Part shown: positions 5,587 to 27,027 of the stretch, in pieces
Numbering within the stretch: the first letter of the stretch is position 1
How the letters are laid out: every line of letters begins with the position of its first letter
From: an uncultured Clostridia bacterium
GTDB lineage: Bacteria; Bacillota; Clostridia; Christensenellales; UBA1242
NCBI GenBank assembly: GCA_934756675.1
Contig: CAKVLG010000002.1
Location: 64,339-128,338, forward strand
Reading direction: 5' to 3'
Length of the DNA: 64,000 bases
Notes under the pieces: generated by a model
What the model was told of the DNA's origin: nothing
What the model saw: only the letters and a program-made list of their open reading frames with translations
Databases searched by the model: none
Translations under genes and position numbers: made by a program

Positions 5587-5616
5587 AAAACTAGACAAAT
5601 GGGTGTCTAGTTTTTT
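5587..5616. terminator. Bidirectional intrinsic terminator-like hairpin between the divergent lipoprotein and activator-like genes
   Basis: Stem CTAGACA (5591-5597) pairs with TGTCTAG (5604-5610). There is an A-run upstream and a T-run downstream. Confidence 0.55.
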
Positions 5617-5639: not shown

Positions 5640-5653
5640 CGAACATATGTTTG
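5640..5653. promoter_or_regulatory. LexA (Cheo/SOS) box candidate
   Basis: CGAACATATGTTTG differs from the Firmicutes consensus CGAACATATGTTCG at one position. It is intergenic, about 155 nt upstream of the 5809 start. Confidence 0.45.
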
Positions 5654-6396: not shown

Positions 6397-7287
6397 TTAT
6401 AATAAATCGTCATCATCAAAGTCATACGTGGGAAATTTTGGTTGTTTTTCACAATTTTCTTGCAAAATTTGCGGTTTTTTGCGAACAAAATGATTATTTG
6501 CATAGCTTTCCGCAGTAGCTAAACCATGTTTCTTTTTTCTGCCAGAAAATACGAGTAACAAAAATATTACAAGCATAGGTAAAGATATAATTATAATCAT
6601 AACAGCACGTAATCCACCAGAAAGGTAGATATAATTTTCTTGCGTAGTAAGTCCGGTTTGTTCGGCTGGTAGTAATTCTTGTTCAAACTCGTTATTTTCT
6701 GGTATCGAAGAAAGGTTTTCGGTTTTCTCGCTATAAACATATCCAAAGTAAACACTGACAGGGTCGCTGCTAGGGGAATACTCAGCAAAGTACCAAACAT
6801 TGCTTTTTCCAGATGGTGGAACTTCGCCATAGGTTTTTGCGATGTATGAAATATTGCTTGTGCCACTTTGGATAACGTTTTTGATGTTTGATGAAATTTC
6901 GGTAGTTGGTGTTTCGCGTATTTGCGTTCCTGAACTTTGATTGATTGAAAAGGTTATACCAGTCAAAGTCTTTACATGCGGCTCACCACTTACTTTAAAG
7001 ATTTTTTCTGTTTTTACAAAACCAATAAAACCAGCATAATTTACTTTTGAAATGGTCTGAGTTATTTCACCAATAACTGTTACAAAATATCCACAAGGCA
7101 CTTCAAAATATATGTTTTCAAAAGTGTCAAGCGAGGTATCACTGGTTTTGTATAAAATACATTCATTTTTCACTTTTGCATAAACTGTGTCGTCTGTTGC
7201 TTGAGCAAAACTAGAGATGTTAAATAAACAAAAATTATTGCTAGTTATGCTAAACAAAACGAACAACAAAATCGATAATTTTTTCAT
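6397..7287 (-). CDS. Secreted, membrane-anchored protein with two SH3b-like segments
   Basis: 296 aa. Has an N-terminal signal peptide and a C-terminal TM helix (AVMIIIISLPMLVIFLLLVF) followed by a basic/acidic tail. The SH3b call rests only on pattern resemblance (VYAKVKNECILYKT...). Confidence 0.4.
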   Translation of the reverse strand: MKKLSILLFVLFSITSNNFCLFNISSFAQATDDTVYAKVKNECILYKTSDTSLDTFENIYFEVPCGYFVTVIGEITQTISKVNYAGFIGFVKTEKIFKVSGEPHVKTLTGITFSINQSSGTQIRETPTTEISSNIKNVIQSGTSNISYIAKTYGEVPPSGKSNVWYFAEYSPSSDPVSVYFGYVYSEKTENLSSIPENNEFEQELLPAEQTGLTTQENYIYLSGGLRAVMIIIISLPMLVIFLLLVFSGRKKKHGLATAESYANNHFVRKKPQILQENCEKQPKFPTYDFDDDDLL

Positions 7288-7381
7288 GCTATTATTTTAA
7301 AACAAATGCGTTATTTTTGCTCTATAATTTTTAGTCGAAAATAGTAAAATAATAGACAATTTTAAAGTTTAATAAATTAAT

Positions 7382-7414
7382 AAAAAACGCAAAATTATAA
7401 AAATAAAAGTGAAA
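7382..7414 (+). promoter_or_regulatory. Bipartite motif copy A (AAAAAACGCAAAATT-N11-AGTGAAA); candidate late promoter or activator site
   Basis: Both boxes also occur at 28147-28180 and 61260-61292. This copy ends 63 nt upstream of the TerL ATG. Confidence 0.5.
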
Positions 7415-7476
7415 ATCAATTATAAAAATGTAAAAAATAACAAAAAATTGCAATTTTATACAATTTTTAACACATT

Positions 7477-8928
7477 ATGAATAATATAAAGATTTTGCAA
7501 AAATTAGCCGCTTTAAAAGCAGAACTTATCAGACGAAATCACTTTACACTTGCACGCTATAATACGGGTAAAATTGTTCATAAAAAACAACTACAATTTC
7601 ACAAATGTGACAAGCGAAATAGGTGGGTTTTTGGTGGCAATAGAACTGGTAAAACAGAATGTGGTGCGGTGGAAAGTATTTGGCTTGCACGTGGCAATCA
7701 TCCATATAGAAAGAATAAAAAAGATGTAACAGGTTGGGTGGTAAGTTTATCTACAAAGGTTCAAAAAGAAGTAAGCCAAGAAAAAATTTTGAAGTACTTA
7801 AACAAGTCTTGGATATATGATATTGTAATGAAAAGTGGTAGCAAGGGTAGTGCTGGTTATGGCATTATTGATACTATTATTCTTAAAAATGTTTTTGGTG
7901 GGTTATCTAGAATTAGTTTTAAATCGTGCGAAGAAGGTCGTGAAAAATTTCAAGGTACTTCGCTTGATTTTGTTTGGTTTGATGAAGAACCGCCAAAGGA
8001 TATTTATGAAGAATGTGTTATGCGTGTTATTGATAAAAGGGGTGATGTTTTTGGAACAATGACTCCGCTTAAGGGTATGACTTTTGTATATGACCAAATT
8101 TATCTTAACCCGACAAATGATCCGGAAATTTTTTGCATGTTCATGGAATGGCAAGATAATCCTTTTTTACCAAAAGAAGAGATAGATAGGTTAACAGCTT
8201 CGCTTTCGCCAGAAGAGTTAGAGAATCGCAGATATGGTAGGTTTGTTAATCTTTCCAATTCGCTTGTATATAAAGAGTTTGATGAACAAGAAAATGTTAT
8301 TGAACCTTTTCCCGTTCCACCAGAATGGCAATGTAATATTTCGATTGACCCTGGCTTATCGAACCCGCTTTCTGCACATTGGTATGCAGTTGATTTTGAT
8401 GATAATGTTTATGTGATAGCAGAGCATTTTGAGAGTAACAGAACTATAGAATATCATTCTACAAAAATAAAAGAAATAAGTGACAGCTTAAACTGGCGGC
8501 GTGGAAGAAATGGCATGATAGAAGCACTAATCGATTCGGCAGCTAACCAAAAGACACTTGCTAGCACAAAAAGTGTAACCGAGCTTTTTTATGATAATGG
8601 AATACTTGCAAACCCAAATGTAAATAAGGACCTATTTTCTGGAATTAGTAGAGTTAAAAGTTACCTTAAAAATGAACAAGGAAAAAGTAAACTTTTTATT
8701 TTTTCTTGCTGCACAAACTTAATCCGTGAACTTAAAAGTTATTATTGGAGTGAAGGTGATAGGCCTCGTAAATTTGACGACCACGCACTTGATGAGTTGC
8801 GTTATTTTATTATGTCGCGTCCAGAGAATAAACCGCCACTTCCAGTTAAGTCAGAAATAACAAAAGACAAAGAGCGACTTTATAAAAAACTGCAAAATGC
8901 AAGGAAAAACTATGGAAAATACTATTGA
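7477..8928 (+). CDS. terL: Terminase large subunit
   Basis: 483 aa. Walker A-like GGNRTGKTECG and Walker B-like LDFVWFDEEP, with a C-terminal nuclease-type region (SIDPG...). First gene of the structural operon. Confidence 0.9.
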   Translation: MNNIKILQKLAALKAELIRRNHFTLARYNTGKIVHKKQLQFHKCDKRNRWVFGGNRTGKTECGAVESIWLARGNHPYRKNKKDVTGWVVSLSTKVQKEVSQEKILKYLNKSWIYDIVMKSGSKGSAGYGIIDTIILKNVFGGLSRISFKSCEEGREKFQGTSLDFVWFDEEPPKDIYEECVMRVIDKRGDVFGTMTPLKGMTFVYDQIYLNPTNDPEIFCMFMEWQDNPFLPKEEIDRLTASLSPEELENRRYGRFVNLSNSLVYKEFDEQENVIEPFPVPPEWQCNISIDPGLSNPLSAHWYAVDFDDNVYVIAEHFESNRTIEYHSTKIKEISDSLNWRRGRNGMIEALIDSAANQKTLASTKSVTELFYDNGILANPNVNKDLFSGISRVKSYLKNEQGKSKLFIFSCCTNLIRELKSYYWSEGDRPRKFDDHALDELRYFIMSRPENKPPLPVKSEITKDKERLYKKLQNARKNYGKYY

Positions 8929-9379
8929 TTTTGAACAAATCAAGCAAATTTTAATAAAAAAGGCGAAGGGCTTTTATTATACCGAAGAGGCTGTAGAGTT
9001 TGCTTGCGATGCCGAAGATAAGCTTGTTATTGATGCTAAAACAATGGATGAAAACACAGAATATAAGGTTTCTCTGTCGCAAAAAAATTCTAAAAAAAAC
9101 ACTCCAAAAAGTGGCACATCACAGCTACAGTTTGATTTTTCTGATTTAGAATGTAAAGTGAAAAAGGAAAGCAAAACCGATGCAAAAACTAAAGAAACTT
9201 CTGTGGTTAAAAGGAAAATTACCACGCACTACGTTCCGCCTGATATGCTTGCTATTAAAATGTTGTTTGAAAATTTTGGGGAAAAGGTAGGTGGACTCGA
9301 ACAGTTGTCAGATGAAGAAATATTAAAAATGAAACGTGATTTGCTATCCGAATTGGAGGAAAATGATGAAGATAAATAA
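8912..9379 (+). CDS. Acidic hypothetical phage protein; weak small-terminase-like candidate
   Basis: ATG at 8912 (MENTIDFEQ...), overlapping the TerL end. The segment KRKITTHYVPPDMLAIKMLFENF recalls a motif I associate with some Gram-positive phage small terminases. That recollection is weak. Confidence 0.45.
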   Translation: MENTIDFEQIKQILIKKAKGFYYTEEAVEFACDAEDKLVIDAKTMDENTEYKVSLSQKNSKKNTPKSGTSQLQFDFSDLECKVKKESKTDAKTKETSVVKRKITTHYVPPDMLAIKMLFENFGEKVGGLEQLSDEEILKMKRDLLSELEENDEDK

Positions 9380-9548
9380 AGTTGATGTAAACAGACGTTG
9401 TGACCATGGCATTTGCCAAGAAAAGGCGGCAATTGAAATTGTCCTTGGCGGATATAAAAACCGAATATTGCTTTGCGCTAAATGCTATGAAGAACTAAAA
9501 AATCAAATGAAAACATTAGGGAGAACACCACGTGAAAAACAAGGATAA
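9363..9548 (+). CDS. Small Cys-rich (zinc-ribbon-like) protein
   Basis: GGAGG SD precedes ATG 9363. 61 aa with C-x-H-x2-C ... C-x2-C (RRCDHGIC...LLCAKCYEEL). It overlaps both neighbouring genes. Confidence 0.5.
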   Translation: MMKINKVDVNRRCDHGICQEKAAIEIVLGGYKNRILLCAKCYEELKNQMKTLGRTPREKQG

Positions 9549-11436
9549 AATTACAAAAAATTTAACTAAAGAAAAATATTTTTATGATGAAGATAAAGAC
9601 AAAGAAATTGTAGATTTTGTTAACAGAGATTTCGAAAACAGACGTGAAGAACGCAGACCATATGAACTCTCTTGGGAACTTAATATGAACTTTATGATTG
9701 GCAATCAATACAGTTACATTTCGCCAAAAGGTGACATTGAAGACGTTAACAAAAACTATTATTGGGAAAGCCGCGAAGTTTATAACCATATTGCACCAAT
9801 AGTTGAAACAAGACTGGCAAAGCTTGCAAAAGTTAGACCGACAGCGTCAGTCAGACCGTCTAGCAGTGAAAAGAAAGATGTTTATTGCAGCAAGCTTTCG
9901 AAGGCTATTATATCTAACACAGCAAGTAGGTTAGCTTTAAGCGATATTATTGGTAAAGCTACAACTTGGAGCGAGATTACTGGCACGGCATTTTATAAGG
10001 TTGTGTGGGATAAGTCGCTTGGTGAGATTATTGGAAAAAATGATGATAGCGACATAAAAACTGGCGATGTATCGATTTCTGTTTGCTCGCCGTTTGAAAT
10101 CTTCCCAGATTCTTCGGGCTCTGTTGATATTGAAGATTGCGACTCAATTATTCATGCTAGGGCATATCCGTCAAGTTTTATTCAAAGCGAGTATGGAATA
10201 GATGTAGAAGGCAAGGATATAGACACTTTTTCGTTCGATAATTTTCCGCTTAATAATAGCGTCACGGGAAGTAGTAACATTCAAAAAGTTATTCATGCGA
10301 CAAAGCATGACCATGTACTTTTAATTGAAAGATACGAAAAACCAAATAGCAAAAACAAAAATGGCAAACTTACAATTGTTTGTGCGAACCATTTGCTCTA
10401 TGATGGTGATTTGCCATACATGCTTGGTGATAAAAATGCTAGAGCTTATCCGTTTGTAAAACAAGTGTCTTCGGAAGTTGTGGGCTTGTTTTGGGGAACA
10501 AGTGTTGTTGAAAGATGTATTCCGCTTCAACGCGCCTATAACAGTATAAAAAATCGTAAGCACGAATTTATGACAAGGCTCGCAGTTGGTGTGCTTGCTG
10601 TTGAAGATGGTTCTGTCGATGTAGATAATATCGAAGAGGACGGCTTGGCACCAGGTAAAATTTTGGTCTATCGCAATGGTTCAACGCCACCAACATTTAT
10701 GGATGCAGGGCATATTCCTAGTGATTTTTCGGTTGAAGAAGCAAAACTGTTGAATGAATTTATAACACTTTCTGGTGTAAGTGAGTTGATGCGTGATGGT
10801 TCGGCACCGTCTAATGTATCCAGCGGTACGGCGCTTAACTTATTAATTGAGCAAGATGATACAAGGCTCAGCGTAACCGCAGAGTTCATTCGAAGTAGTG
10901 TAAGGCAAATCAGCCAAATGATTTTAAGATTATATAAACAATTTGCCACGGCAAAACGCATTGCAGAAATCACAGACGAAGATGGTGCTGTTGAACTTTA
11001 TTATTGGAATAACGCAGATATATCTAGCGATGATGTGGTTCTAGACACTACAAATGAGCTTGCCGAAACGCCAGCACAGCGGAAAAACAATGTGTTAGAG
11101 CTTTATCGCAATGGACTTTTATTTGATAGTGGAGACGGAAAAATGAGTAACCGTATGCGACTTAAAATTTTGGACGCTTTGGGATTTGGTATGTTTGAAC
11201 TTTCGCAAGACATGAGTGCGCTTCATATTAAGCGTGCACAAAAAGAAAATCTGGAACTGACAAAACCTATTGTGCCACTCGAAATTGATGACCACGAATT
11301 GCATATTGAAGAGCATACAAAATTTTTGCTCAGCAGCGAGTCAGACGATTTTTCCGCCGAGCACAAAGAGAAAATTGAAAAGCACATTCGTGCGCACAAA
11401 CAACTAATGAAATTTATGAGAGAGGAACAAGTTTAA
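9532..11436 (+). CDS. Portal protein
   Basis: 634 aa with a GTG start after an AGGGAG SD. The N-terminal pattern ELSWELNMNFMIGNQY is typical of portal families. It lies between terminase and scaffold. Confidence 0.85.
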   Translation: MKNKDKITKNLTKEKYFYDEDKDKEIVDFVNRDFENRREERRPYELSWELNMNFMIGNQYSYISPKGDIEDVNKNYYWESREVYNHIAPIVETRLAKLAKVRPTASVRPSSSEKKDVYCSKLSKAIISNTASRLALSDIIGKATTWSEITGTAFYKVVWDKSLGEIIGKNDDSDIKTGDVSISVCSPFEIFPDSSGSVDIEDCDSIIHARAYPSSFIQSEYGIDVEGKDIDTFSFDNFPLNNSVTGSSNIQKVIHATKHDHVLLIERYEKPNSKNKNGKLTIVCANHLLYDGDLPYMLGDKNARAYPFVKQVSSEVVGLFWGTSVVERCIPLQRAYNSIKNRKHEFMTRLAVGVLAVEDGSVDVDNIEEDGLAPGKILVYRNGSTPPTFMDAGHIPSDFSVEEAKLLNEFITLSGVSELMRDGSAPSNVSSGTALNLLIEQDDTRLSVTAEFIRSSVRQISQMILRLYKQFATAKRIAEITDEDGAVELYYWNNADISSDDVVLDTTNELAETPAQRKNNVLELYRNGLLFDSGDGKMSNRMRLKILDALGFGMFELSQDMSALHIKRAQKENLELTKPIVPLEIDDHELHIEEHTKFLLSSESDDFSAEHKEKIEKHIRAHKQLMKFMREEQV

Positions 11437-12134
11437 TGGAAGAAACAAATAGAGTGGAACAACCCGGTTTAGTGGAAAATGTGGCAGATAGTTCGCAAGA
11501 TAAAAACGCGAGCATTGCAACAGAAACTCAAAGCTGTGGCTCCACATTTGGGAAATTTAAAGATGCAACAAGCTTACTTTCTGCATACGAGCATTTAGAA
11601 GCGGAGTTCACGCGAAAAAGTCAAAAAGTGGCTAGCTTAGAAAAAATGCTTGAAAAGCAAACTGCGGCAAGCAGCGGAACAGATAATGCGTTGACAAATA
11701 ATATAGAAAAGTCAAATGAAAATGTTTGCGGTTATGCATATGAGAAAGAAAATTGGAAAGATGTAGTTCAGGAGTTCTTTGATAGCAATCCAACGGCAAA
11801 AGATTACAAAAAAGAAATGGCTATGGTAATAACAGAAACTCCTGAAATTGCACTTTCTCCAAAATGTTTAGATTTGGCACTTGCAATAAGTAAAAGCCGA
11901 ACACTTAAAGAGCCTGCAGAACTTAAAAATGACCAAAACTTTTTAGACAATTATGTGTTGAATGATGCCGGCATAAAAGATAAAATCATTAACAACTACA
12001 TAAGGTCTATATCGCTTGGAGATTTGCCAAAAGTCATAACTGGCATGCCAAGTACAACAGTTGCAACGCCTAGGGCAGCTGCTCCAAAAACAATAAAAGA
12101 AGCAAGCAATCTTGCTAAAAAATACCTAGGCTAG
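11436..12134 (+). CDS. Scaffolding protein candidate
   Basis: 232 aa, rich in E, K, A and Q and likely helical. Lies between portal and capsid genes. TAATG stop-start overlap with the portal gene. Confidence 0.55.
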   Translation: MEETNRVEQPGLVENVADSSQDKNASIATETQSCGSTFGKFKDATSLLSAYEHLEAEFTRKSQKVASLEKMLEKQTAASSGTDNALTNNIEKSNENVCGYAYEKENWKDVVQEFFDSNPTAKDYKKEMAMVITETPEIALSPKCLDLALAISKSRTLKEPAELKNDQNFLDNYVLNDAGIKDKIINNYIRSISLGDLPKVITGMPSTTVATPRAAAPKTIKEASNLAKKYLG

Positions 12135-12152
12135 AAATTATTAGGAGAAAAT

Positions 12153-13364
12153 ATGGTAACTTTAACAAGTGCTGATAATGTGCTTAAACAAGTTTATCTT
12201 GGTGTTGTTTCAGAACAATTAAACACATCAATAAACCCATTACTCAGCAAAATTAAACAAACAACATCTGATGTTTGGGGTAAAGAAATCCGCAAAGTTG
12301 CGCCATACGGACTAAATGGTGGTATTGGTGCTGGCGATGAAAACTCTACACTTCCAACAGCAGCTGGCAATCAATACGCACAATTCGTGCTCTCACTTAA
12401 AAACCTTTACGGTAAAATTGAAATTACAGATAAAGCAATTCGCGCATCTCAAAATAGTAGCGGCGCTTTTGTTAACCTTCTTGATGCTGAAATGGAAGGA
12501 TTGATCAGAGCCAGTGCATTCAACTTTGGTAGAATGCTTTATGGCGATGGTACTGGCATCATCACAAAAATCACAGATAACGATACAACAACAATTACTT
12601 GCGAAGCTGTTAATTGTTTGATTGAAGGTATGGTTATTGATATTGTAGACGCAACTGGCACTGTTTTAACATCTGGAAAAGGTCTTCGCATTACATCGAT
12701 CGATAGAGCAAACAAGGTTGTCACTTTGGCTGGTGCAAGCTTCACAGCTGACGCTTTGGTTAAGTCTGACTCTGTATCTGGTTCTAAGGATTATTTTGTT
12801 GCTGTTCAAGGTTCTTATGGTAAGGAACTTACTGGTCTTGGTGCAATTTTCAAAACAACAGGAACTCTTTATGGTTTGAGCAAAAGCGACTATGGTTGGC
12901 TAAATTGCTACACAAAAGATATTGCAGGTGAAACTTCTAAAACAGATATTAATGATATGGTTATGCAAACTGCTATTGATAATGTAGAAGAAAATGCAAA
13001 CAGCAAAATTGACTTTATAGTTTGTTCTGCTGGTGTTAAAAGAAATTACCAAAACTACTTTACTAGCTATAGAACAAATGTAGACATTATGGATTTAGCT
13101 GGTGGTTATAAGGCAATTAGTTACAATGGTATTCCACTTGTTTCAGATAGATTTGCTCCAGCAAACACAATGTTCTTGCTTAACACAAAAGAATTTAATT
13201 TACATCAGCTTTGTGATTGGCAATGGCTTGAAGGTGAAGATGGTAGAGTTATAAAGCAAGCTGCAGACAAACCAAGTTACACTGCAACTCTCGTTAAATA
13301 CGCTGATATTATTTGTGACCAACCAAGCGGACAAGCAAAAATTACAGGTATTAAGGAATCTTAA
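12153..13364 (+). CDS. Major capsid protein
   Basis: 403 aa with a strong SD (AGGAGAAAATATG). Position directly after the scaffold gene. No prohead protease is present, consistent with scaffold-dependent assembly. Confidence 0.8.
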   Translation: MVTLTSADNVLKQVYLGVVSEQLNTSINPLLSKIKQTTSDVWGKEIRKVAPYGLNGGIGAGDENSTLPTAAGNQYAQFVLSLKNLYGKIEITDKAIRASQNSSGAFVNLLDAEMEGLIRASAFNFGRMLYGDGTGIITKITDNDTTTITCEAVNCLIEGMVIDIVDATGTVLTSGKGLRITSIDRANKVVTLAGASFTADALVKSDSVSGSKDYFVAVQGSYGKELTGLGAIFKTTGTLYGLSKSDYGWLNCYTKDIAGETSKTDINDMVMQTAIDNVEENANSKIDFIVCSAGVKRNYQNYFTSYRTNVDIMDLAGGYKAISYNGIPLVSDRFAPANTMFLLNTKEFNLHQLCDWQWLEGEDGRVIKQAADKPSYTATLVKYADIICDQPSGQAKITGIKES

Positions 13365-13372
13365 AGGAGATG

Positions 13373-13393
13373 GGGCGGGAGTATTTCTCGCCC
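13373..13393 (+). other. GC-rich stem-loop immediately after the capsid gene
   Basis: GGGCGGGA (13373-13380) pairs with TCTCGCCC (13386-13393): 8 bp including one G-T wobble, with a 5-nt loop. It lies between an AAGGAGA SD (13364-13370) and ATG 13403. Confidence 0.5.
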
Positions 13394-13402
13394 TTAATAT
13401 TT

Positions 13403-13792
13403 ATGAAAGACTATTTGATTAAATTTGATGGAATCTTTGATTTATATAACCGATTTAAGAAAATAGATAAAAATTATGAACTATTCTACAATCGAAAAAC
13501 AAACAGATTTGAGCTATATAGTGGTGTTATGCGAAAAAATTTAGAATTAATTTTTGGCGAGCTTAACAGTTCGAAATGTTTGATAAAAACGCAACAATCA
13601 CGTATGCAAAATATCGAGCGTGTGATTAAAGAAATAGAATTATACAACGAAAGATTACAACAGAAAACAATAGACAATTTACGTGACAAAACCATGCTTG
13701 TGGCGGAGGAAGCAATAAATTATGCCGACAAGACAAGCAAGGATATTACGCTGCAAGAGATAAATTCAATTATGGAGAATACAAATGCTTAA
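13403..13792 (+). CDS. Hypothetical phage head-associated protein
   Basis: The ORF track starts it at 13370, but that ATG abuts the SD with zero spacing and lies in the hairpin. ATG 13403 (MKDYLIKFDG...) is more plausible. Function unknown. Confidence 0.5.
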   Translation: MKDYLIKFDGIFDLYNRFKKIDKNYELFYNRKTNRFELYSGVMRKNLELIFGELNSSKCLIKTQQSRMQNIERVIKEIELYNERLQQKTIDNLRDKTMLVAEEAINYADKTSKDITLQEINSIMENTNA

Positions 13793-14354
13793 AGATATAA
13801 TTTTAACAACACTTTTATTGCTAGGAAAAGAAAATGAACTTGTAGAAGTTGAAACTAAAGAAGAATCGGAATATTCGCCAGCAACAAAATCGCTTATATC
13901 GCAACTTATAAAAATTGTTAATTTGGTTGCGTCTGATATCACGCGTAATGTTGTCCGTTTGACTTTTTGCGAAACATTAACTTCTGACGAAAATTGCGAA
14001 ATAAAATACTCAAGTTTATCGAAAAAGGTTATTGGAATTAAAAGCGTAACCGAAGGCAACAAAGATGCAACATTCAATCTTTATCCAGAATATATAAAGG
14101 TGGGTAAACCAAACACTAAATATAAAATCACTTATAACTACGAAAACCAAAAATGTAAGTCTATTGATGATGATATTGTTTTTCCAGTTTGTGTGACTTG
14201 TGGTATTGTTGCATATGGTGTGGCAAGTGAATATTGTTCTATGAATTTGCTTTATGATGAATGCACTATGTGGGAACAAAAATATGTAAGGGCACTCGAA
14301 AATATTATGCCAAAAACTGGTGAAAGAAAAATGGCAAGATGGTGGAATTTATGA
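13785..14354 (+). CDS. Hypothetical phage protein; head completion or adaptor candidate by position
   Basis: 189 aa. Overlaps the upstream stop and the downstream start. Confidence 0.5.
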   Translation: MLKDIILTTLLLLGKENELVEVETKEESEYSPATKSLISQLIKIVNLVASDITRNVVRLTFCETLTSDENCEIKYSSLSKKVIGIKSVTEGNKDATFNLYPEYIKVGKPNTKYKITYNYENQKCKSIDDDIVFPVCVTCGIVAYGVASEYCSMNLLYDECTMWEQKYVRALENIMPKTGERKMARWWNL

Positions 14355-15832
14355 AGAGAATAAAATACCCAAACGGGCACACGTATAAACTTAAACTTTC
14401 GTCATTTGAAGCGGGGCTTGGTGGCAGTGATGAAAATATTATGCCATTTAAGTACGCAAAAGAAACATATAACTTTAACCAAATAGGTGGAAACCTAAAA
14501 ACGGGCATTGGATTTTCGGCATTTTTAAAGTATTTTTGCAGTCCAGATTATCTTGAACAATTTAACGAAAAATTTTCTGAGCTTGGCAAAATTGAAGGTG
14601 TGTGGCACTTTAAGAAATATAACCAGACACTTGGCAAACGAGAAGATAAACTCATTTTTATAAACGACAGTTTGCAAACATATTACATAGATTTTGCAAC
14701 AAACAATGTGGCATTTAACAGGGTATATTCTTTGGCGTTTACATCAAAACCTGTTGCAGTCAACTATAGGCTAGAAGGAAAAGATGTAATTATCTTTTCG
14801 AGTGAAACAGATAACATGGTTGTTTGGGACGGCGAAAATCCAGCTTATAGCGTTTTAGATGCACCAAAAATTTCGTCTATGGCACTTCATTATGAAAGAT
14901 TATTTGTAACTGTCAATGGCGAAAAGAATAGTGTTTGGTTTTCTGATGACCTAGATCCAACAAATTGGACTGTGTCGCTTGATGAAGCGGGTTTTATTCA
15001 AATGGTAGACGAGCGTGGAGCTTTGCAAAAAGTTGTTTCTTTTAATGATTATTTGTATGTGTTCCGCGAGCAAGGTATTAGCAGAATAACAGCGTATGCA
15101 AATCAAGAAAACTTTTCTGTTTCGCACTTGTTTGTTTCGAGTTCTAAAATTTATAGAGATTCGGTTTGCATTTGTGGCGACAAAATTTTGTTTTTAGCAA
15201 GTGATGGTATTTATATTTTTGACGGATACGAAACAACTAAAATACTTCCAGCAATAAGCAAAAAACTTGAAGGACTAAATAACAACACAAGCTACGCTTG
15301 TTATTATAATGGAAAATATTATTTGGCTTGTAAATTTAACTTTGAAGAAAACTCTTCGTTCCAAGAGAGTGAAACCGAAAACAATGCACTTTTTGAAATT
15401 GATGTGAGTAAACTGACGGTTAATATTGCAAGAGGTGTTAGTGTTAACTTTTTGTCTGGCATAGTTTCGGACTTTTTTACGGGCGTACTTGCTGCGGTTA
15501 AGTCGGCAAGTGGGAGAACGCTTGTGGTTATAGATAATTCTGGTAAGCTTTTTGGCAACGTGCTTTCAAAATGCTGGCAATCTACTTTTAGCGATATGGG
15601 GTATCCTTCGAGCAAAAAGATTATTAGACAGATTGTGTTAACTAGTGCTTCGCCTGTTGATGTTATTGTTAAAAATGAAAAAGATGAAACAAGACTTCAT
15701 TTTTCTGGCGGTGGCGTTCCCGAAATTAAACATCTAGTTAAAAGTGGTATGCGGTTTAGTTTTAGAATAGAAAGTCAAAGTGAACAGACAGAAATTAGCA
15801 ATGTTGAAATTTCTGTAAAGGTAGAAGAATAA
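14351..15832 (+). CDS. Phage structural protein; tail or adaptor candidate
   Basis: About 493 aa with an ATGA overlap to the upstream gene (alternative ATG at 14339). Repeated beta-strand-like segments. Assignment rests on position after the head genes. Confidence 0.55.
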   Translation: MKRIKYPNGHTYKLKLSSFEAGLGGSDENIMPFKYAKETYNFNQIGGNLKTGIGFSAFLKYFCSPDYLEQFNEKFSELGKIEGVWHFKKYNQTLGKREDKLIFINDSLQTYYIDFATNNVAFNRVYSLAFTSKPVAVNYRLEGKDVIIFSSETDNMVVWDGENPAYSVLDAPKISSMALHYERLFVTVNGEKNSVWFSDDLDPTNWTVSLDEAGFIQMVDERGALQKVVSFNDYLYVFREQGISRITAYANQENFSVSHLFVSSSKIYRDSVCICGDKILFLASDGIYIFDGYETTKILPAISKKLEGLNNNTSYACYYNGKYYLACKFNFEENSSFQESETENNALFEIDVSKLTVNIARGVSVNFLSGIVSDFFTGVLAAVKSASGRTLVVIDNSGKLFGNVLSKCWQSTFSDMGYPSSKKIIRQIVLTSASPVDVIVKNEKDETRLHFSGGGVPEIKHLVKSGMRFSFRIESQSEQTEISNVEISVKVEE

Positions 15833-18189
15833 TGAATTATGGAAGAATAGCTTATTTAAAAACTATAGAACTAGAGCAGCGTGTAGGCAGTGAAAAAAAT
15901 GAAACCAACAATTTTGAATGTAGCGAATTTTCGGTTGATAATTATAACGAAACGTTCTATGACTCGCACGTGCTTTCGTATCCAATAAAAGTACTGGCAA
16001 ATAAAAGTGTTTGTTTGCAAAGTAAAATTGTAATCTCATGCTCGCAAGAGGAAGAAATTGACATAAAAGTTTTGGCGGGTGATGGCGAAATAGGTTCGTT
16101 TAGCCAAAAACTTACTGTTGGTGAAAATGATATAATTGTCTACAAGTCATACATTTCTGACGTGTCACAAGACATAGATTTAAAAATTCAAATTACGGGC
16201 GAGTACCATGAAAAAACCATTCTTAGGGTTAACACTTTGATTTTTGGCATAGCAGCACAAGGTAGTGTTGATAACATTGAGATGCGCGTGCTTTCCACTC
16301 CAACGCAGATGATAGTAAGTTTTATTAACAGCGGCAAGATTTTTATTTCTAAAACAGATAAAGATAAACTCTATGAAAACTTGTCTTTTGAATACTATAA
16401 AGATGCATCGAGTCATTGTTTTGTAGATGCTGGGAGTGCGGTTAAACTTTATTATGTAAATGCACAGAATGTGCTCAAAGAGTGCGAATATGACGGCTCG
16501 AATGAAAGAATTGTGGCAGAAAATGTAACAAAAGTTTTTGCAATAAAGGCGCCAGATTCCAGCGATGACGATGTTGTTGTTTGCTATCTTTCTGACTCGA
16601 AACCCAAATATAAATGCTTGATAGATGGCGTGTATACATCCGAACGAAATTTGCCATTTCCAGACGGCTCGTACTCCGATATTAGACTGATTTCTGATAG
16701 CGAAAATTTTGTATATGCAATTGCAACAAAAACAAATGGTGCAAACTTTATTATAAAATCAGTCATGGAAATTTCAACAGGCAAACTTGTAGAAAATGTT
16801 AGTGTGTCACTTAGTCATGTAATTAACAAATACTATTGTTTGCCACAAATAGAAGATATGTCGCTTGCAAGTGTTTCTGCAAATGTTGTGATTGCAACAA
16901 GCACTTATTACACATATGCATCACTTTCTAGCAAGGTGTTTACTAGCAATGTGCGGGTAAGTTTAAACCATGATGCTGTTGCTTATCAAATGGAAATTCC
17001 AGAGCCAATAGAAGATGAAATAACTTATGGTATTACAATAGATATGACTAATAGTGATCCAAAGGCAAGCGTAACTTATACAAATGACGCGGTAGGTATG
17101 AGTGGTGCATATATGGATTTTGACAACGATACATTTGTTGATAATGGGTGGCTTAATAAATGGCCATTTAACAAAATCAAGCCATGCATACTTTCTTCTG
17201 TAGGCGAAGTTGCTGGTTATCTTGACCCAAATAATTATACAAAGCTGACAGATGGAACAAGCGTAGATATTTCTGTTAATGGTGACTATGACGTTATGAT
17301 AGAAATCCCCAAAATTTACTATGATATAAAAACGGTCGATAAAGACCATATAACTGTTCAAATATCTAATGGTAGTACCGAAACTAACTGCTGCCGTGCA
17401 TTTCAACACAAAGGTGAAGAGTTTGATAAAATTTATGTAGCGGCATATCATTCGTTTATGCAATCTGATGATAAATTTGTAACTGCCACAGTGCGAAGTG
17501 TTACTGGTGGCAAACCACCAAAAGCATATATTAGTCTAGTCAAAAACCTTACACAAACCCAAATGATTAATTTTATTCATGAACGCGGAGGATATTATGA
17601 GTCGTTCCCATACGATGTTTATATTTTGATTGAATGTTTGTATTTGATTATGTTTAAAAGTCTAAACACTTCAGGTTCTATTGGCCACGGATATAAAGGT
17701 GATACGCTTGTAAACACTGGCACTTTGGATAAAAAGGGCATGTTTTATGGCACAACAGGAAACACTCAAATGAAAATATTTGGAATAGAAGATCTTTACG
17801 GCAATGGCGGTTGTTTACTTACTGGTGTTCAGATTGATAAAAATATGGATATGTATGTTCTTGATCCAACTACAACAGTGCCAGTTTCATATGATCCAGG
17901 AATACAAAATATGGAGCTTGTTTATACCGGCGAAGCTACCTTTAGTGATAAGAGAATTAGAAGAGCGCATGGTTCTAATAAAACAGGAATAATAATCACA
18001 GAAACTGCGGAGATGGGTGAAAATGAGTATTTTAGTGATACACAAAGTTTTGTAAAGTATATGCAGAACTATAGAACTTGTGGGTATAAGATGGATACAA
18101 ATTTAGGCATATTCTCAATACATTCGTCTTATGACTCAAAATATGATATGGAAGGGTTTTGTAGAATGGTTTATTATAAGAGGAGTTAA
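15832..18189 (+). CDS. Large phage tail protein; tail fibre or receptor-binding candidate
   Basis: 785 aa with a TAATG overlap to the upstream gene. No domain recognised with confidence. Confidence 0.55.
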   Translation: MNYGRIAYLKTIELEQRVGSEKNETNNFECSEFSVDNYNETFYDSHVLSYPIKVLANKSVCLQSKIVISCSQEEEIDIKVLAGDGEIGSFSQKLTVGENDIIVYKSYISDVSQDIDLKIQITGEYHEKTILRVNTLIFGIAAQGSVDNIEMRVLSTPTQMIVSFINSGKIFISKTDKDKLYENLSFEYYKDASSHCFVDAGSAVKLYYVNAQNVLKECEYDGSNERIVAENVTKVFAIKAPDSSDDDVVVCYLSDSKPKYKCLIDGVYTSERNLPFPDGSYSDIRLISDSENFVYAIATKTNGANFIIKSVMEISTGKLVENVSVSLSHVINKYYCLPQIEDMSLASVSANVVIATSTYYTYASLSSKVFTSNVRVSLNHDAVAYQMEIPEPIEDEITYGITIDMTNSDPKASVTYTNDAVGMSGAYMDFDNDTFVDNGWLNKWPFNKIKPCILSSVGEVAGYLDPNNYTKLTDGTSVDISVNGDYDVMIEIPKIYYDIKTVDKDHITVQISNGSTETNCCRAFQHKGEEFDKIYVAAYHSFMQSDDKFVTATVRSVTGGKPPKAYISLVKNLTQTQMINFIHERGGYYESFPYDVYILIECLYLIMFKSLNTSGSIGHGYKGDTLVNTGTLDKKGMFYGTTGNTQMKIFGIEDLYGNGGCLLTGVQIDKNMDMYVLDPTTTVPVSYDPGIQNMELVYTGEATFSDKRIRRAHGSNKTGIIITETAEMGENEYFSDTQSFVKYMQNYRTCGYKMDTNLGIFSIHSSYDSKYDMEGFCRMVYYKRS

Positions 18190-18190
18190 A

Positions 18191-20287
18191 ATGAATTGTA
18201 AATTACATAACAAACTAGAGGTTATTCAAGGCGGAAAAACTATTGTTGCATATAACTCAATGTTGGAAACGGTGTATTCTGCAATTGCAAATCTTAAAGA
18301 TTATTTTAAATATATTGTTGTTGGAACGGGAACAACGGAAACTACATTCACAATGACAAAACTTGCTAGCTATTCTGGCGGCGGATATTTGCTTACAACA
18401 GATGCTGTGTCAGCTGATATTAATGCTGATGAGTTATATGTGAAAAAATCTTTTACGTTTGGTGAAAACGATTATAGCGGGCTTACATTTAGTGAAATTG
18501 GCATAACAGATGATTCTGCTAGTAACCCAGATATTTATAATAGAATATTGTTAAAAGATAGTTCTGGCAATGCATTAACTGTAACTAAACGTGATGGTGA
18601 ATCGTTGACGTTGCGTATGACTGTTTATCTTGAAATAGACACTGATTCTAAACATTATTTTACGCTTGGTGAAAATGCACTAATAAAACAATTGATGGGC
18701 GAACATGTTGCGGATAACAAAAACTTATTTGCGATTCGTGGAAGCAACACGTCTGATAATTCTCAGTCAATTGACAGGCTTTTGCCACTTGGTGGGCAAT
18801 CAAAATGTGCGGCAACTGTCGAGGGGTCGGCAAGTGAAAACACCTTTAAAGTGAACTTTGTTGCAAACCTTGGTAATGGCGCGGCAAGAGAAATTGTTTT
18901 TATTTATGCAAACACTGTTGTTGCGCGAGTTAACATAGAAGATAAAGCTGTTATCTATAGAGGTGCACAAGCAATAACTTCAGATTATATGGGGTTTGTA
19001 GACTTTGGTGAAAACTTCAACAACTTCGAAAGTTTAAGTGCAAGTAATGCTCAAAAAAATGTAACAGAAAACGATTTTAAAATAAGTAAGTACACGAGAA
19101 GTCTTGGCGAACAGATTAAAAAAGTTCCTGATTTCAAGCATTTTAAACTGAAGGAAAATAGCAAACTTTTGATGTCGCCAGATGGAAAATCTTTTGTGCT
19201 TGGTCTTGAAAATAATATTCAGTATGGAATATATAAAGTTATGCCGAGCGGTGGTATTGTTGAAATATGTGACAATGCATACAATGATGATGAATGCCGA
19301 ACAGCAAGATTTTATGATTGTGAAATGTATTACTTTACGACAATTATTAATAAGTTTTCACATTATGTTGTTGAAAATGGTGTGCTTGTTTCAAAACCAA
19401 TTGAAAACAACAAAATCAGCTTAATTTATGATCTAAGCAAACTGAAAGATTTTGATGTAAGTATTGCAACAAATGGTCATTTACTTATTGGTATGATTAT
19501 CGAGTCAAATAACAAACAAATTGGCAGTGTGATTGCACTTGAAAAAGATGAAGCTACTGGTGGCTATAAATATCTTTCACATAAAGAAGCAACAATTGAA
19601 AATGTAGACAAAATGGTGTCGTGCCCAAAAGAATGTCATGGCGATGGTGGTTTTTTATTTTTCTCACAATCGACAACTAAGACCGAAAGTGGTAAGGCAA
19701 TTGAGTACGTGACTGAAACTAGCACAAAAATAATAGAAAATGATCAATTTGTGAACTTGGTTCACTTGCCAAACTGTTTTAAAGTTTTGTGTGCAAAAGA
19801 CTTTTTAATTTGTTTAATTCAAGGAACGGCAGCAAATAGAGTTATGATTTATGATATTGTGAATGATAAACATACAAATATTGGTGCAAATACTGTGAAT
19901 GATAATATATATGGGAATGAGGGAAATGATAAATATTTTGTTCAAAACGACCCAGATGGTAATTTTGATGCGCTTATGTATAGAGTGAAATACCACGAAT
20001 TAAAACCATTTGAAGATACTTTGCCATTTGATAAAAGTAATGTATTAAAAGCGTTTTTTGCTAAAGATGTAGTCGTATTTATTGTAAAGATGGCTTCCGG
20101 TGATATTGTAATGCGAGCATATACCCTTGATGAAACATATTTGTATGGCGTTAATTTTGACTGTCCAAACGAAATTTATTTTGGTGATATTTATTATAAA
20201 AAGTATATTGGTACAGATGAATATCAGGGCGTACAAGCAAAACTTACTATTAAAATTGATGGGCCGATAGTAGAGGAAAATACATAA
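18191..20287 (+). CDS. Large phage tail protein; second fibre or spike candidate
   Basis: AGGAG SD precedes ATG 18191 (MNCKLHNKLE...). The track's 18131 start overlaps the upstream gene. 698 aa. Confidence 0.55.
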   Translation: MNCKLHNKLEVIQGGKTIVAYNSMLETVYSAIANLKDYFKYIVVGTGTTETTFTMTKLASYSGGGYLLTTDAVSADINADELYVKKSFTFGENDYSGLTFSEIGITDDSASNPDIYNRILLKDSSGNALTVTKRDGESLTLRMTVYLEIDTDSKHYFTLGENALIKQLMGEHVADNKNLFAIRGSNTSDNSQSIDRLLPLGGQSKCAATVEGSASENTFKVNFVANLGNGAAREIVFIYANTVVARVNIEDKAVIYRGAQAITSDYMGFVDFGENFNNFESLSASNAQKNVTENDFKISKYTRSLGEQIKKVPDFKHFKLKENSKLLMSPDGKSFVLGLENNIQYGIYKVMPSGGIVEICDNAYNDDECRTARFYDCEMYYFTTIINKFSHYVVENGVLVSKPIENNKISLIYDLSKLKDFDVSIATNGHLLIGMIIESNNKQIGSVIALEKDEATGGYKYLSHKEATIENVDKMVSCPKECHGDGGFLFFSQSTTKTESGKAIEYVTETSTKIIENDQFVNLVHLPNCFKVLCAKDFLICLIQGTAANRVMIYDIVNDKHTNIGANTVNDNIYGNEGNDKYFVQNDPDGNFDALMYRVKYHELKPFEDTLPFDKSNVLKAFFAKDVVVFIVKMASGDIVMRAYTLDETYLYGVNFDCPNEIYFGDIYYKKYIGTDEYQGVQAKLTIKIDGPIVEENT

Positions 20288-20541
20288 TGCAATTTAATAG
20301 AAAGCTTGCAAAAATTGGCAAAGGTAAGTTTGCTAGTGGCTATGTTGAAAGTGATGGCAATATCATAATTTATCTTAATAGTGGTGGTATTCAAAAGAAA
20401 TTACTTTCGCAAAACGATGATGTAATTAACCTAACAAATAAAGAAATTATTTCTGGAAAAAGTGAAATAATTAAAGTTTCTGAATCTGTATTTGTTCAAA
20501 GAATATTGCAAAAGGTAGCGATAAGAAGTAGTGATAAATAA
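20287..20541 (+). CDS. Hypothetical small phage protein
   Basis: 84 aa with a TAATG overlap. Last gene of the first coupled block. Confidence 0.45.
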   Translation: MQFNRKLAKIGKGKFASGYVESDGNIIIYLNSGGIQKKLLSQNDDVINLTNKEIISGKSEIIKVSESVFVQRILQKVAIRSSDK

Positions 20542-20655
20542 TAATCAAAATTTAACAAAAAACGCAAAAATGTACTTTATCAATATGCAAAAACACATAA
20601 ATATATACAATTTATTCAATAAAAATAGAAATGAATAATTTTTAGGAGAGTAAAA

Positions 20656-21543
20656 ATGTCTAATAAAAATGAAGAAAAAGAAAGGGAAAATGATCCAATA
20701 AAACATCTAGAAGAAATCCAAAAGAAGTATGGTAATCTTGATTATATAGATGCTCCACCAACTCTTGGCTTAGAGAAAAAGACGTTCAATGATATGAGCA
20801 ATGACGAACTCTTGGATTATGCATTGAAGTCTGTCGATAAAACTCAGACCGACAAAAATAAACAAGAAATATCCGATTTGTATGGCGGCAAGATTGATAA
20901 AAAGAATGATAAAAAAACCGAGCTTGAAGAAACTGGTAAAAAATCACAATCAATTATAAATGCAGCTTATGATAAGTCGAGTAAAAATTTATCAAATGAT
21001 GCATTGAAGCGCGGACTTGCACGTTCGTCTATTGTGATCAATCAATTGTCAGGGTTAGAAGAAAATCGTGCAAAAGATTTGGTTGAAGAGATGAACACAA
21101 TTAATACTAAAATGAGTAATATTTCCGAAGAGATTGCTGAACTTGAAAAATCGAGAGATAGTGCACTTGAAGATTTAGACATAAGTTATGCGAAATCGCT
21201 TGAAAAATCAATTAGTGAGAAACGCAAGGAACTCGACAAAGAAAAAGAAGAAGTATTTGCGTTTAACAATAAAGTTGACCAGCTTGAAGCTGACTATCAA
21301 ATTGAACTCGAAAAACAAAGAAAAGCAAAAAGGAAAGAAAACATGGAGTACCGTGCAAAATATGGATATACATTAGATGAGCTTAAAATGCAGAACGAGA
21401 TGTATAACTATATGATGAACTATCTTGGTAACATGTCGAAGAAAGATGCACTTGCTGAACTGCTTGGTAAAAGTGAATACGAAAGATTGCTTGGAGATAA
21501 ATATTTAGAAATATATGCTTTCACAAGAAATAGAAAGTTGTAG
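20656..21543 (+). CDS. Coiled-coil, charged hypothetical protein
   Basis: 295 aa with an AGGAGAG SD. Very rich in K, E and D with heptad-like stretches. Confidence 0.5.
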   Translation: MSNKNEEKERENDPIKHLEEIQKKYGNLDYIDAPPTLGLEKKTFNDMSNDELLDYALKSVDKTQTDKNKQEISDLYGGKIDKKNDKKTELEETGKKSQSIINAAYDKSSKNLSNDALKRGLARSSIVINQLSGLEENRAKDLVEEMNTINTKMSNISEEIAELEKSRDSALEDLDISYAKSLEKSISEKRKELDKEKEEVFAFNNKVDQLEADYQIELEKQRKAKRKENMEYRAKYGYTLDELKMQNEMYNYMMNYLGNMSKKDALAELLGKSEYERLLGDKYLEIYAFTRNRKL

Positions 21544-21554
21544 GGAGATAGAAA

Positions 21555-22133
21555 ATGTTTACTCAATTAAAATTACGTATGAAGACATACAACTTTTGGA
21601 TAAGCTTAGTCAGTGCTATTGTGTTAGTGCTTAGAATAATAGGTGACAAATACAACTTTTTTGTAGATGCATCTCTTATTATGGACGTTACGACTGGGCT
21701 TTGTTCAATCTTTGTGGTGCTTGGAATAATATCTGCACCAACAAACAAAAAAGAGGATAAAATTATGAATGAAGATGTTATTGGAAGATTTAATCAAGTT
21801 AATATTAATGGTGGTACTAACACTGAAACTGATGAAGTTGATAAAAAAATAACAGAAGAACAAGAAAATATTGCACTTGATACTTCTGCAGAAAACAATG
21901 TGTCAAATAATGTTATAGTGCCAGAAAATGTGATTCAACAAGAAGCTGTCAATAATGAAAAAGATGCTTATATTGAAAAAGATAATGTAAAAAACATTAC
22001 AAATATTGCAGAAAACGTACAACCAACAATGCAACTTGTTGAAAACTATGAAGATAAGCAATATCGACAAACCATTAAAAAAGATATTGTTAACTTGCTT
22101 ACTTTATTAATAGAGAAAATCGAAGAGATTTAA
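21555..22133 (+). CDS. Holin-like protein with a long N/E-rich C-terminal tail
   Basis: GGGAGA SD. The N-terminus LRMKTYNFWISLVSAIVLVLRIIG plus a second TM helix (VTTGLCSIFVVLGIISAP) resembles the phiLC3-type holin pattern (KNKxFWxALxSA...). Confidence 0.5.
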   Translation: MFTQLKLRMKTYNFWISLVSAIVLVLRIIGDKYNFFVDASLIMDVTTGLCSIFVVLGIISAPTNKKEDKIMNEDVIGRFNQVNINGGTNTETDEVDKKITEEQENIALDTSAENNVSNNVIVPENVIQQEAVNNEKDAYIEKDNVKNITNIAENVQPTMQLVENYEDKQYRQTIKKDIVNLLTLLIEKIEEI

Positions 22134-22134
22134 T

Positions 22135-22164
22135 ATGCCGCCGCTTAGGCGGTATATTTTTTTT
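22135..22164 (+). terminator. Intrinsic terminator closing the phage-like cluster
   Basis: ATGCCGCC-GCTTA-GGCGGTAT stem-loop followed by T8. Confidence 0.75.
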
Positions 22165-22258
22165 GTAAATTAGTTGAAATTTTTTTTATAGTATTGTATA
22201 ATAAACTAATTAGTAAGACTTTTGTTGCAGAATAAAAAATTTTAGCAGGGGTAATATT

Positions 22259-26968: not shown

Positions 26969-27027
26969 GCTAAATTTTGTAATAAAATGGTGAAATGTGT
27001 AATAAGATTGTAAAAACGGGGGCGAAT

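Follow-up and report, generated by a model that had tools for sequence, protein, structure and literature searches.

A probable domesticated podovirus-type particle locus, and candidate gene-transfer-agent-like system, in uncultured gut Clostridia

Introduction

What is a run of phage late genes doing among the housekeeping genes of a gut bacterium? The stretch of DNA analysed here (64,000 nucleotides, positions 64,339 to 128,338 of contig CAKVLG010000002.1, assembly GCA_934756675.1, hereafter the window) comes from an uncultured member of the Christensenellales. It contains 14 tightly packed plus-strand open reading frames (ORFs) at 7477-22133, which form an operon of 14.7 kb, or a locus (also called the cassette below) of 16.5 kb when its regulator is counted. 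A preliminary description had offered two readings of this locus: either the right arm of a prophage, or a replication-less, host-retained particle locus with the logic of PBSX or of a gene-transfer agent (GTA) and the morphology of a podovirus. The results presented here reject the former and support the latter. The locus is probably a domesticated, vertically inherited, podovirus-derived particle locus, i.e. a viriform of the GTA or PBSX type. Its most likely function is the SOS-triggered packaging and release of host DNA in the manner of a GTA, making it a strong candidate for a new GTA-like system.

The locus encodes packaging, head and short-tail proteins

All features are listed in Table 1. 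The 14 ORFs overlap or abut as first described, for example with TTTAATG between the portal and scaffold genes, ATGA between g189 and the nozzle gene, AATAATG between the nozzle gene and g785, and ACATAATG between g718 and g84. The single intergenic gap of more than 20 nt in the operon measures 114 nt and lies upstream of the DUF7934 gene. The GC content of the operon (0.30-0.39) is the same as that of its flanks. Family searches bore out the gene order that had been read from the sequence, from TerL through portal and capsid genes to proteins of 493, 785 and 698 amino acids (aa) and a holin.

One element of that description had to be corrected, namely that no clear small terminase (TerS) is present. 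The gene following that of TerL, g160, is a TerS candidate: 26 of the 44 members of its family match PHROG 309 “terminase small subunit” (best 1.4e-8) and 15 of the 44 match PHROG 23444. In the family alignment, the copy in the window carries a central insertion of about 60 aa. The small zinc-ribbon gene is kept between TerS and portal genes (clusters c19 and f23). The 232-aa protein at the scaffold position matched no family in Pfam, PHROG or NCBIfam, nor was a match to Prp obtained; a gene at this position is conserved in 96 loci. The AlphaFold2 (AF2) model of the major capsid protein has a predicted local distance difference test score (pLDDT) of 91.6, and its best match in the PDB is the capsid protein of phage Pa223, followed by those of SU10 and HK97. 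Directly 3’ of the capsid stop codon, inside the start of the g140 ORF, is a GC-rich hairpin of 10 pairs (13372-13394), possibly a partial terminator that raises the dosage of capsid protein. The assignment of g189 as a head-to-tail adaptor is weak because just 2 of the 46 family members match the head-tail adaptor family PHROG 442. Three of the 46 match a virion structural protein family, no PDB sequence match was found, and an hhalign comparison with the “tail tube protein” of Microbacterium phage Shocker was not significant.

The identity of the 493-aa protein was derived from structure. Its AF2 model (pLDDT 88.9, predicted template-modelling score 0.90) was compared with the PDB using Foldseek, and the top 27 matches were all podophage tail complexes, the best being Pa223 (E=1.5e-22, template-modelling score 0.73), followed by VP1, GP4, PhiM1, P22, Pan3, SU10 and T7. 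Nor did hhalign give a significant result for this nozzle and g189 when the Shocker “tail tube” gene and the gene next to it were the targets; the nozzle alignment is collinear over 367 columns. A weak PHROG “amidase” match had made the same protein a possible endolysin; this was discarded because its structure is that of a nozzle. PDB sequence searches, run with profiles of the nozzle, g189 and g160 and with single sequences of g785 and g718, returned nothing useful.

The 785-aa product of g785 is about 27% identical to tail proteins of Bacillus, Clostridioides and Butyrivibrio phages. Its N-terminal anchor, MxYGKxAYxKxxELE, is conserved and its C-terminal part varies between clades. The same motif is common to otherwise unrelated genes that occupy the slot after the nozzle gene in other clades. 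A conserved anchor with a clade-variable remainder is the pattern expected of a receptor-binding fibre. The 698-aa fibre-like protein is limited to the subclade of the window. In many related species, the post-capsid set consists of g140, g189, the nozzle gene, one fibre gene and the DUF7934 gene alone. DUF7934 itself found no match among 50,697 phage records.

No ORF of the locus has a PHROG or Pfam match to a tape-measure, tube or sheath protein. This agrees with the P22-like short tail first proposed and, taken with the modelled nozzle and the family matches, indicates that the virion module is of the short-tailed, podovirus type. The absence of several gene classes was also borne out: in Pfam, PHROG and NCBIfam searches of the locus, no integrase, CI/Cro repressor, replication, prohead-protease or endolysin family was matched, and the locus contains no helix-turn-helix repressor family of the Xre/CI type. 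The other 42 kb of the window are made up of housekeeping genes, namely those of rnj, U32 peptidase, a sigma factor, MgsA, UvrD, LepA, hrcA-grpE-dnaK-dnaJ, PcrA, LigA, PriA, Def, Fmt and RecG. Judged by sequence, then, phage structural and packaging genes reside in a host chromosome without genes for replication, integration or lysogeny.

Table 1 Features of the locus and its borders in the window
Feature	Position	Strand	Evidence or remark
Giant lipoprotein gene	starts 5443, runs off the window (1-5443)	-	22.4 kb, 7,479 aa; lipobox LTFGAC
LexA (Cheo) box	5640-5653		CGAACATATGTTTG; 169 nt upstream of the activator ATG; sole match in the 64-kb window
sig195, sigma-70 region-4-type late-gene activator, 195 aa	5809-6396	+	PHROG 36 at 1e-7; weak extracytoplasmic-function (ECF) sigma and RinA matches
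Divergent membrane protein	6397-7287	-	signal peptide, SH3-like ectodomain, one transmembrane segment; conserved
TerL, large terminase	7477-8928	+	Terminase_6N/6C; PHROG 2 at 5e-35; Walker A GGNRTGKT
g160, TerS-like small terminase candidate	8897-9379	+	after TerL; family PHROG matches
Zinc-ribbon protein, 60 aa	9366-9548	+	four cysteines (C12, C18, C37, C40)
Portal, P22/SU10 type	9532-11436	+	PF16510 (P22_portal) 3.7e-16; PF23899; PHROG 156 at 1e-31
Scaffolding protein, 232 aa	11436-12134	+	by position and composition; no protease domain
Major capsid protein, HK97 fold	12153-13364	+	PHROG 14242 at 2e-61; NCBIfam NF033394 capsid_maj_Podo, 282 bits
g140, small head or connector protein	13370-13792	+	conserved in 58 loci
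g189, putative head-to-tail adaptor	13785-14354	+	conserved in 78/82 loci
Tail nozzle, podovirus type, 493 aa	14351-15832	+	AF2 model and Foldseek
g785, fibre or receptor-binding protein, 785 aa	15832-18189	+	PHROG 5302 “tail protein” 3.5e-38, residues 347-767
Second tail fibre-like protein, 698 aa	18191-20287	+	PHROG 4176 “tail fiber protein” 5e-13, N-terminal 150 aa
g84, 84 aa, possibly fibre assembly or accessory protein	20287-20541	+	always after g718 in the subclade
DUF7934 coiled-coil protein, last structural gene	20656-21543	+	PF25588 at 1e-36; present in 58/82 loci
Holin-like protein	21555-22133	+	two transmembrane segments and acidic tail; Phage_holin_1 2.4e-5; PHROG 297
Intrinsic terminator, operon end	22132-22158	+	11-bp stem, then T-run; mem299 and rnj directly after
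mem299, seven-transmembrane protein, right border	22259-23158	+	part of host block mem299-rnj-OMT

The locus is a widespread chromosomal element

We then asked where else the element occurs. Relatives of the capsid gene were found on at least 530 contigs of a one-genome-per-species collection, and the best 160 of these are all from uncultured Clostridia of the gut or rumen, for many of which the label reads Christensenellaceae, Christensenellales, Borkfalkia or Fimimonas. A large protein database holds at least 5,810 capsid clusters at 90% identity, and a 50%-identity library 2,803. Cluster look-ups of distant capsid relatives, made in search of Faecalibacterium, gave only unnamed, Clostridia and Patescibacteria entries. 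Some cassette-bearing gut metagenome-assembled genomes (MAGs) carry the label Corallococcus sp., Acidiphilium sp., Lachnospiraceae or Oscillospiraceae (L026, L033, L035, L053, L063, L072, L120 and L123), and NCBI places Candidatus Fimimonas in Myxococcaceae. Such organism labels look wrong; they were judged unreliable and not used for taxonomy.

No isolated phage exceeds 30% identity to TerL or to the capsid protein. In IMG/VR, only 27 of 2.9 million contigs contain the capsid gene, all of them fragments of at most 55 kb and most below 20 kb. Because these fragments (L086-L112) carry the same host neighbours, i.e. the giant gene, the activator gene and the membrane protein gene, these “viral” contigs are probably chromosomal pieces of the element and not phage genomes. 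Two of them, L096 and L110, encode a 418-aa capsid protein with a longer C-terminus followed by ten unrelated genes (c74-c83) that replace g140, g189 and the nozzle gene; this layout reflects either a rearrangement or a chimeric assembly.

Dozens of species share the same gene order. The recurrent arrangement is [large surface protein, minus strand], activator, membrane protein (minus strand), TerL, TerS, (zinc ribbon), portal, scaffold, capsid, (g140), g189, nozzle, fibre, DUF7934, [membrane or holin gene]. Annotation of the flanks covered conserved genes within 10 kb of dozens of loci. These conserved flank genes are host genes: polysaccharide deacetylase, SSB-like, DapB, PqqD-like, yqfD-phoH-HD-era, phosphoglucomutase and rnj-OMT-U32. 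No integrase, repressor or replication gene was seen among the annotated flank genes.

In the window, the locus ends at the host block mem299-rnj-OMT. A search anchored on RNase J, the product of rnj, showed that all 15 of the closest species (62-74% identity) have cassette genes directly upstream of mem299-rnj. Thus, the position in relatives, which the preliminary description had proposed to check, is the same in 15/15 species with the closest rnj, the locus is syntenic across dozens of species, and the patchy presence that would have suited an ordinary prophage was not seen. A more distant clade, with RNase J 52-56% identical, has other genes at the mem299-rnj site, and at least nine of these same assemblies carry TerL on another contig. 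In this sister clade (L261-L321; e.g. L275 10004-20627 and L276 10022-18566) the element is split: the genes for the activator, membrane protein, TerL and a secreted protein of about 800 aa come first, followed by host genes, either those for the three components of an ABC transporter (a permease, an ATPase and a binding protein) or that for ValRS or ThrRS, and the TerS-portal-scaffold-capsid genes lie 6-8 kb further on or more than 10 kb away. An element split by host genes could not be excised or packaged as one phage-genome unit; this layout resembles that of multi-locus GTAs.

The locus is inherited with the host and under purifying selection

Co-divergence with the host was assessed by comparing pairwise protein identities with those of RNase J across 24-26 species. 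The Spearman correlations are 0.79 for the capsid protein, 0.90 for TerL and 0.87 for the portal, on a par with the adjacent host control genes U32 and OMT at 0.86 and 0.83, respectively. Conservation of the capsid protein even exceeds that of RNase J, the mean identities being 71% and 58%, respectively (RNase J minimum, 42%).

Ratios of non-synonymous to synonymous substitution rates (dN/dS) were computed between the window and its two closest species (capsid identity 84-85%), at which distance synonymous sites are saturated. Values were 0.04-0.06 for TerL, 0.04-0.09 for the portal, 0.08-0.12 for the capsid protein and about 0.1 for the nozzle, and 0.15-0.41 for the two fibre proteins (0.22-0.34 for the 785-aa protein). 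Every ORF is intact in the three species compared. Thus, the locus is inherited vertically with its host and is under purifying selection, the second property that had been proposed for checking and that holds for TerL, portal and capsid protein alike (0.04-0.12).

Predicted control by LexA and a sigma-like activator

The family profile of sig195, the protein encoded upstream of TerL, matches SigF region 4 at 1e-6 as well as ECF sigmas in the PDB. Sigma70_r4_2 was found in 15 of its 34 family members and DUF1492 in 8 of the 34, and RinA and a PHROG “transcriptional activator” family were matched weakly. Its position upstream of TerL is conserved across loci. Going by this position and by analogy, sig195 would be a counterpart of Xpf, RinA and ArpU that drives the operon.

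The activator had been called SOS-linked in the preliminary description, a label that is justified because a LexA box lies upstream of it (Table 1). Of 61 loci, 36 have the strict form of the box, GAAC-N4-GTTC, within 400 nt upstream of the orthologous activator, a number that rises to 50 when one outer mismatch is tolerated; in many loci, the box is at most 60 nt from the activator start codon. Box density is 1.38/kb upstream of the activator versus 0.011/kb in the rest of the loci, a difference of about 126-fold. At the sequence level, the locus is thus predicted to be expressed under host (LexA) control.

The genes around the activator are also recurrent. A divergent membrane protein gene stands between activator and TerL in 77 of the 93 loci with enough upstream sequence; a larger protein found at its position, c13, carries an SH3_3 domain. 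On the other side is the opposite-strand gene that had been described as a 5.4-kb lipoprotein gene. The lipoprotein assignment stands; the length does not, since the window shows the start of a 22.4-kb gene. Versions of 6,800 and 7,015 aa occupy the same place in sister species, and in other clades the slot beside the activator is taken by SH3 or NHL-repeat membrane proteins of 600-850 aa. At a distance of 26 nt from the LexA box, the intergenic DNA that separates the giant and activator genes contains a perfect 11-bp inverted repeat, AAAACTAGACA-N6-TGTCTAGTTTT (5587-5614), which could be a bidirectional terminator or the operator of another regulator.

Comparison with known systems

The closest published system is FpGTA of Faecalibacterium prausnitzii, a podovirus-like, GTA-like element with 40-nm particles that contain about 9 kb of DNA and were characterised by proteomics (PMC12946183, Nat Commun 2026). 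Its publication overtakes the earlier statement that a podovirus-like particle locus had not been described in Gram-positive spore formers: the kind of system is already known. Reports of other candidate GTAs from gut Clostridia, in Coprocola and in Butyricicoccaceae, are appearing; literature searches found no description of the present element.

Like this locus, FpGTA is chromosomal, belongs to gut Clostridia, is near-ubiquitous in its host genus and encodes podovirus-type TerS, TerL, portal, scaffold-position protein, capsid protein, nozzle, fibres and holin. The charged protein annotated “TolA” that is the last gene listed in its operon I loosely recalls DUF7934 here. The comparison with FpGTA (proteins RCH50844-RCH50853) was one of annotation and layout, and in these the two differ in several ways. 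Annotation places the capsid protein of FpGTA in the N4-gp56 family, whereas that of the locus is capsid_maj_Podo with no N4-gp56 match at E<=0.1. At the place between portal and capsid genes where the locus has a 232-aa scaffold without such a domain, FpGTA carries a Prp-like gene, and its description lists TerS before TerL, the reverse of the order here. Its fibre and lysis genes form a second operon 125 kb away that includes an endolysin, whereas the locus in the window is contiguous with no endolysin seen. Finally, FpGTA particles have been seen experimentally, whereas the locus is known from genes alone.

PBSX, a host-retained defective prophage of Bacillus subtilis, is SOS-inducible, packages host DNA, and has the activator Xpf and a late operon with lysis genes at its end. 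At the gene level it shares with the locus the SOS link, a sigma-like late activator and a single late operon. It differs in its contractile myovirus tail, Xre repressor and endolysins, where the locus has a podovirus nozzle, no Xre/CI-type gene and a LexA box at the activator. GTAs of the RcGTA type, from Alphaproteobacteria, resemble the locus in being ancient and vertically inherited across a clade of order level or larger, in evolving under purifying selection that holds head and packaging genes more tightly than fibres, and in having a multi-locus layout (here in some lineages) and host-controlled expression (here as predicted). Their tail, however, is of the siphovirus type, their proteins are unrelated, and they are controlled by CtrA, GafA and quorum sensing as opposed to LexA and a sigma-like factor. 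For RcGTA, a small T=3 capsid and the packaging of 4 kb have been shown experimentally.

Amongst phages, Pseudomonas phage Pa223 is the best match of both the modelled nozzle and the modelled capsid protein, and Shocker has the same order of terminase, two small ORFs, portal, scaffold and capsid genes. Pa223, SU10, P22, Shocker and Arthrobacter phages are at most 30% identical to the locus in sequence, and all have complete autonomous genomes of 40-77 kb.

Alternative explanations

Is the locus the late arm of an ordinary temperate prophage with its early genes outside the window? Its late module is complete and intact, and the left flank of the window genome is seen only up to the giant gene. 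The expected early region is nevertheless occupied by that 22.4-kb opposite-strand, host-type lipoprotein gene, kept in sister species at 6,800-7,479 aa, and clades with a short gene in this slot have SSB-like, polysaccharide deacetylase and PqqD-like genes next. With the locus at the same site in 15/15 nearest species, co-diverging with rnj and split by host genes in one clade, and with no free phage relative found (isolated phages at 30% identity or less, IMG/VR only host-flanked fragments), a prophage arm is hardly credible. The missing early genes and endolysin, together with a tail-fibre part that differs between clades, might instead point to a functionless cryptic prophage in decay. We set this reading aside as very improbable because dN/dS is low (well under 1 for every gene), dS is saturated and all 14 ORFs are intact in three species; moreover, gene order is kept across dozens of species with RNase J just 42-58% identical, and both the regulator and the LexA box are conserved. 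A mobile satellite or unusual phage, e.g. one akin to a capsid-forming phage-inducible chromosomal island, reliant on a helper phage or on other parts of the genome, would account for an element that, as in some satellites, has its own TerS, TerL, portal and capsid genes and no replication genes, and for locus fragments listed among viral contigs in IMG/VR. These fragments, however, bear the same host neighbours, and genes for an integrase, a primase or a replication initiator are missing from the element, which has nozzle and fibre genes of its own, is chromosomally fixed and co-diverges with its host, so that a satellite is a most unlikely explanation.

The main rival, also unlikely though to a lesser degree, is that the locus makes a killer particle similar to PBSX, i.e. 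a phage-like bacteriocin that kills or damages competing strains and in which packaged DNA is an undelivered by-product. The combination of SOS box, sigma-like activator, late operon and holin follows the logic of PBSX, and the fibre genes evolve fastest and are exchanged between clades, which would suit a role in targeting; the same alternative was raised for FpGTA (PMC12946183). On the other hand, the genes most tightly constrained (dN/dS 0.04-0.12) are those of TerL, portal and capsid protein, none of which would be needed if killing were the sole role, and no mechanism of killing on a par with that of contractile tailocins is known for a short non-contractile tail.

Several points weigh against a domesticated, SOS-controlled, DNA-packaging particle locus, which we nonetheless consider the probable explanation. 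The element is known here from its genes alone. Neither the locus nor the window as a whole yielded an endolysin. Because the LexA box lies between two divergent genes, it could control the giant gene as well as, or instead of, the activator. An expectation-maximisation motif search upstream of TerL yielded a clear element, ATTTTGCCGAGTTGTGTC...GACAA...TTGAC, in one subclade only, and TTTTGYCGA, although 24-fold enriched, is present in just 14 of 74 loci; since the clear motif is confined to one subclade, we make no claim of an activator promoter for the window. The closest structural relatives, Pa223 and SU10, are full-size phages, so that the packaging of pieces shorter than the locus is conjectural. 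The left flank of the window genome was read only as far as the giant gene. Lastly, adjacency to rnj holds in just 27 of the 82 loci overall, the site differing between major clades.

Proposed mechanism and significance

We infer that the activator drives the operon and that particles form, carry random host DNA shorter than the locus and deliver it to recipients. DNA damage would inactivate LexA and de-repress the activator gene, and the activator would in turn switch on the 14.7-kb operon. Scaffold, capsid protein and portal would assemble into procapsids, and the TerS-like protein and TerL would carry out headful packaging of any DNA in the cell, i.e. host DNA. Adaptor, nozzle and fibres would then close the particle, the holin together with a wall hydrolase would lyse the producer cell, and the fast-evolving fibres would let the particles bind related cells.

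To our knowledge, gene clusters have been identified for very few GTA-like systems, and outside Alphaproteobacteria almost none has been shown to be ancient and vertically inherited. With the locus, a large uncultured gut clade, including MAGs labelled Christensenellaceae, has a defined and conserved gene set, together with a regulatory hypothesis that leads from LexA box to sigma-like activator to late operon. In human faecal virus-like particles, host fragments of 4.1 kb and 6.3 kb from Christensenellaceae MAGs (HGM11616 and QANA01) were reported to be packaged in a GTA-like manner, and these events were left without an assigned gene cluster (PMC12946183); the cassette described here is an obvious candidate for it. 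It is possible, and we propose it tentatively, that an ancient, order-wide GTA is present in Christensenellales-like gut Clostridia, that it arose by an independent domestication of a podovirus, is SOS-induced via a dedicated sigma-like factor, and is the source of the 4-6-kb faecal host-DNA particles. If so, it would be the largest vertically inherited GTA lineage known outside Alphaproteobacteria. Should the locus be functional, damage to DNA, whether from antibiotics or from other causes, would make these bacteria export chromosomal DNA in bulk. In addition, because IMG/VR includes chromosomal pieces of the locus, gut virome surveys could count such fragments as phage.

The right border and neighbouring genes

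The right border is formed, as first described, by a strong terminator with core genes after it, mem299 and rnj. We considered mem299 as a possible gene of the element. In the window this was rejected because the block mem299-rnj-OMT exists also where the cassette is absent, and mem299 adjoins rnj in species with no cassette at that site. A mem299-like gene is also located 3’ of the cassette in a clade labelled Christensenellaceae, where rnj does not adjoin, which suggests a paralogue or a co-translocated gene. In GCA_045637805.1, the closest NCBI genome, an alpha/beta-hydrolase gene sits between the holin gene and mem299 (L113 20026-20763); it could encode a lysis-related esterase or be an unrelated insertion. 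Finally, 5 kb downstream of the locus, among the housekeeping genes, the window encodes a sigma-70 family factor with region 2, region 4 and a weak HTH_3 match (26995-27729).

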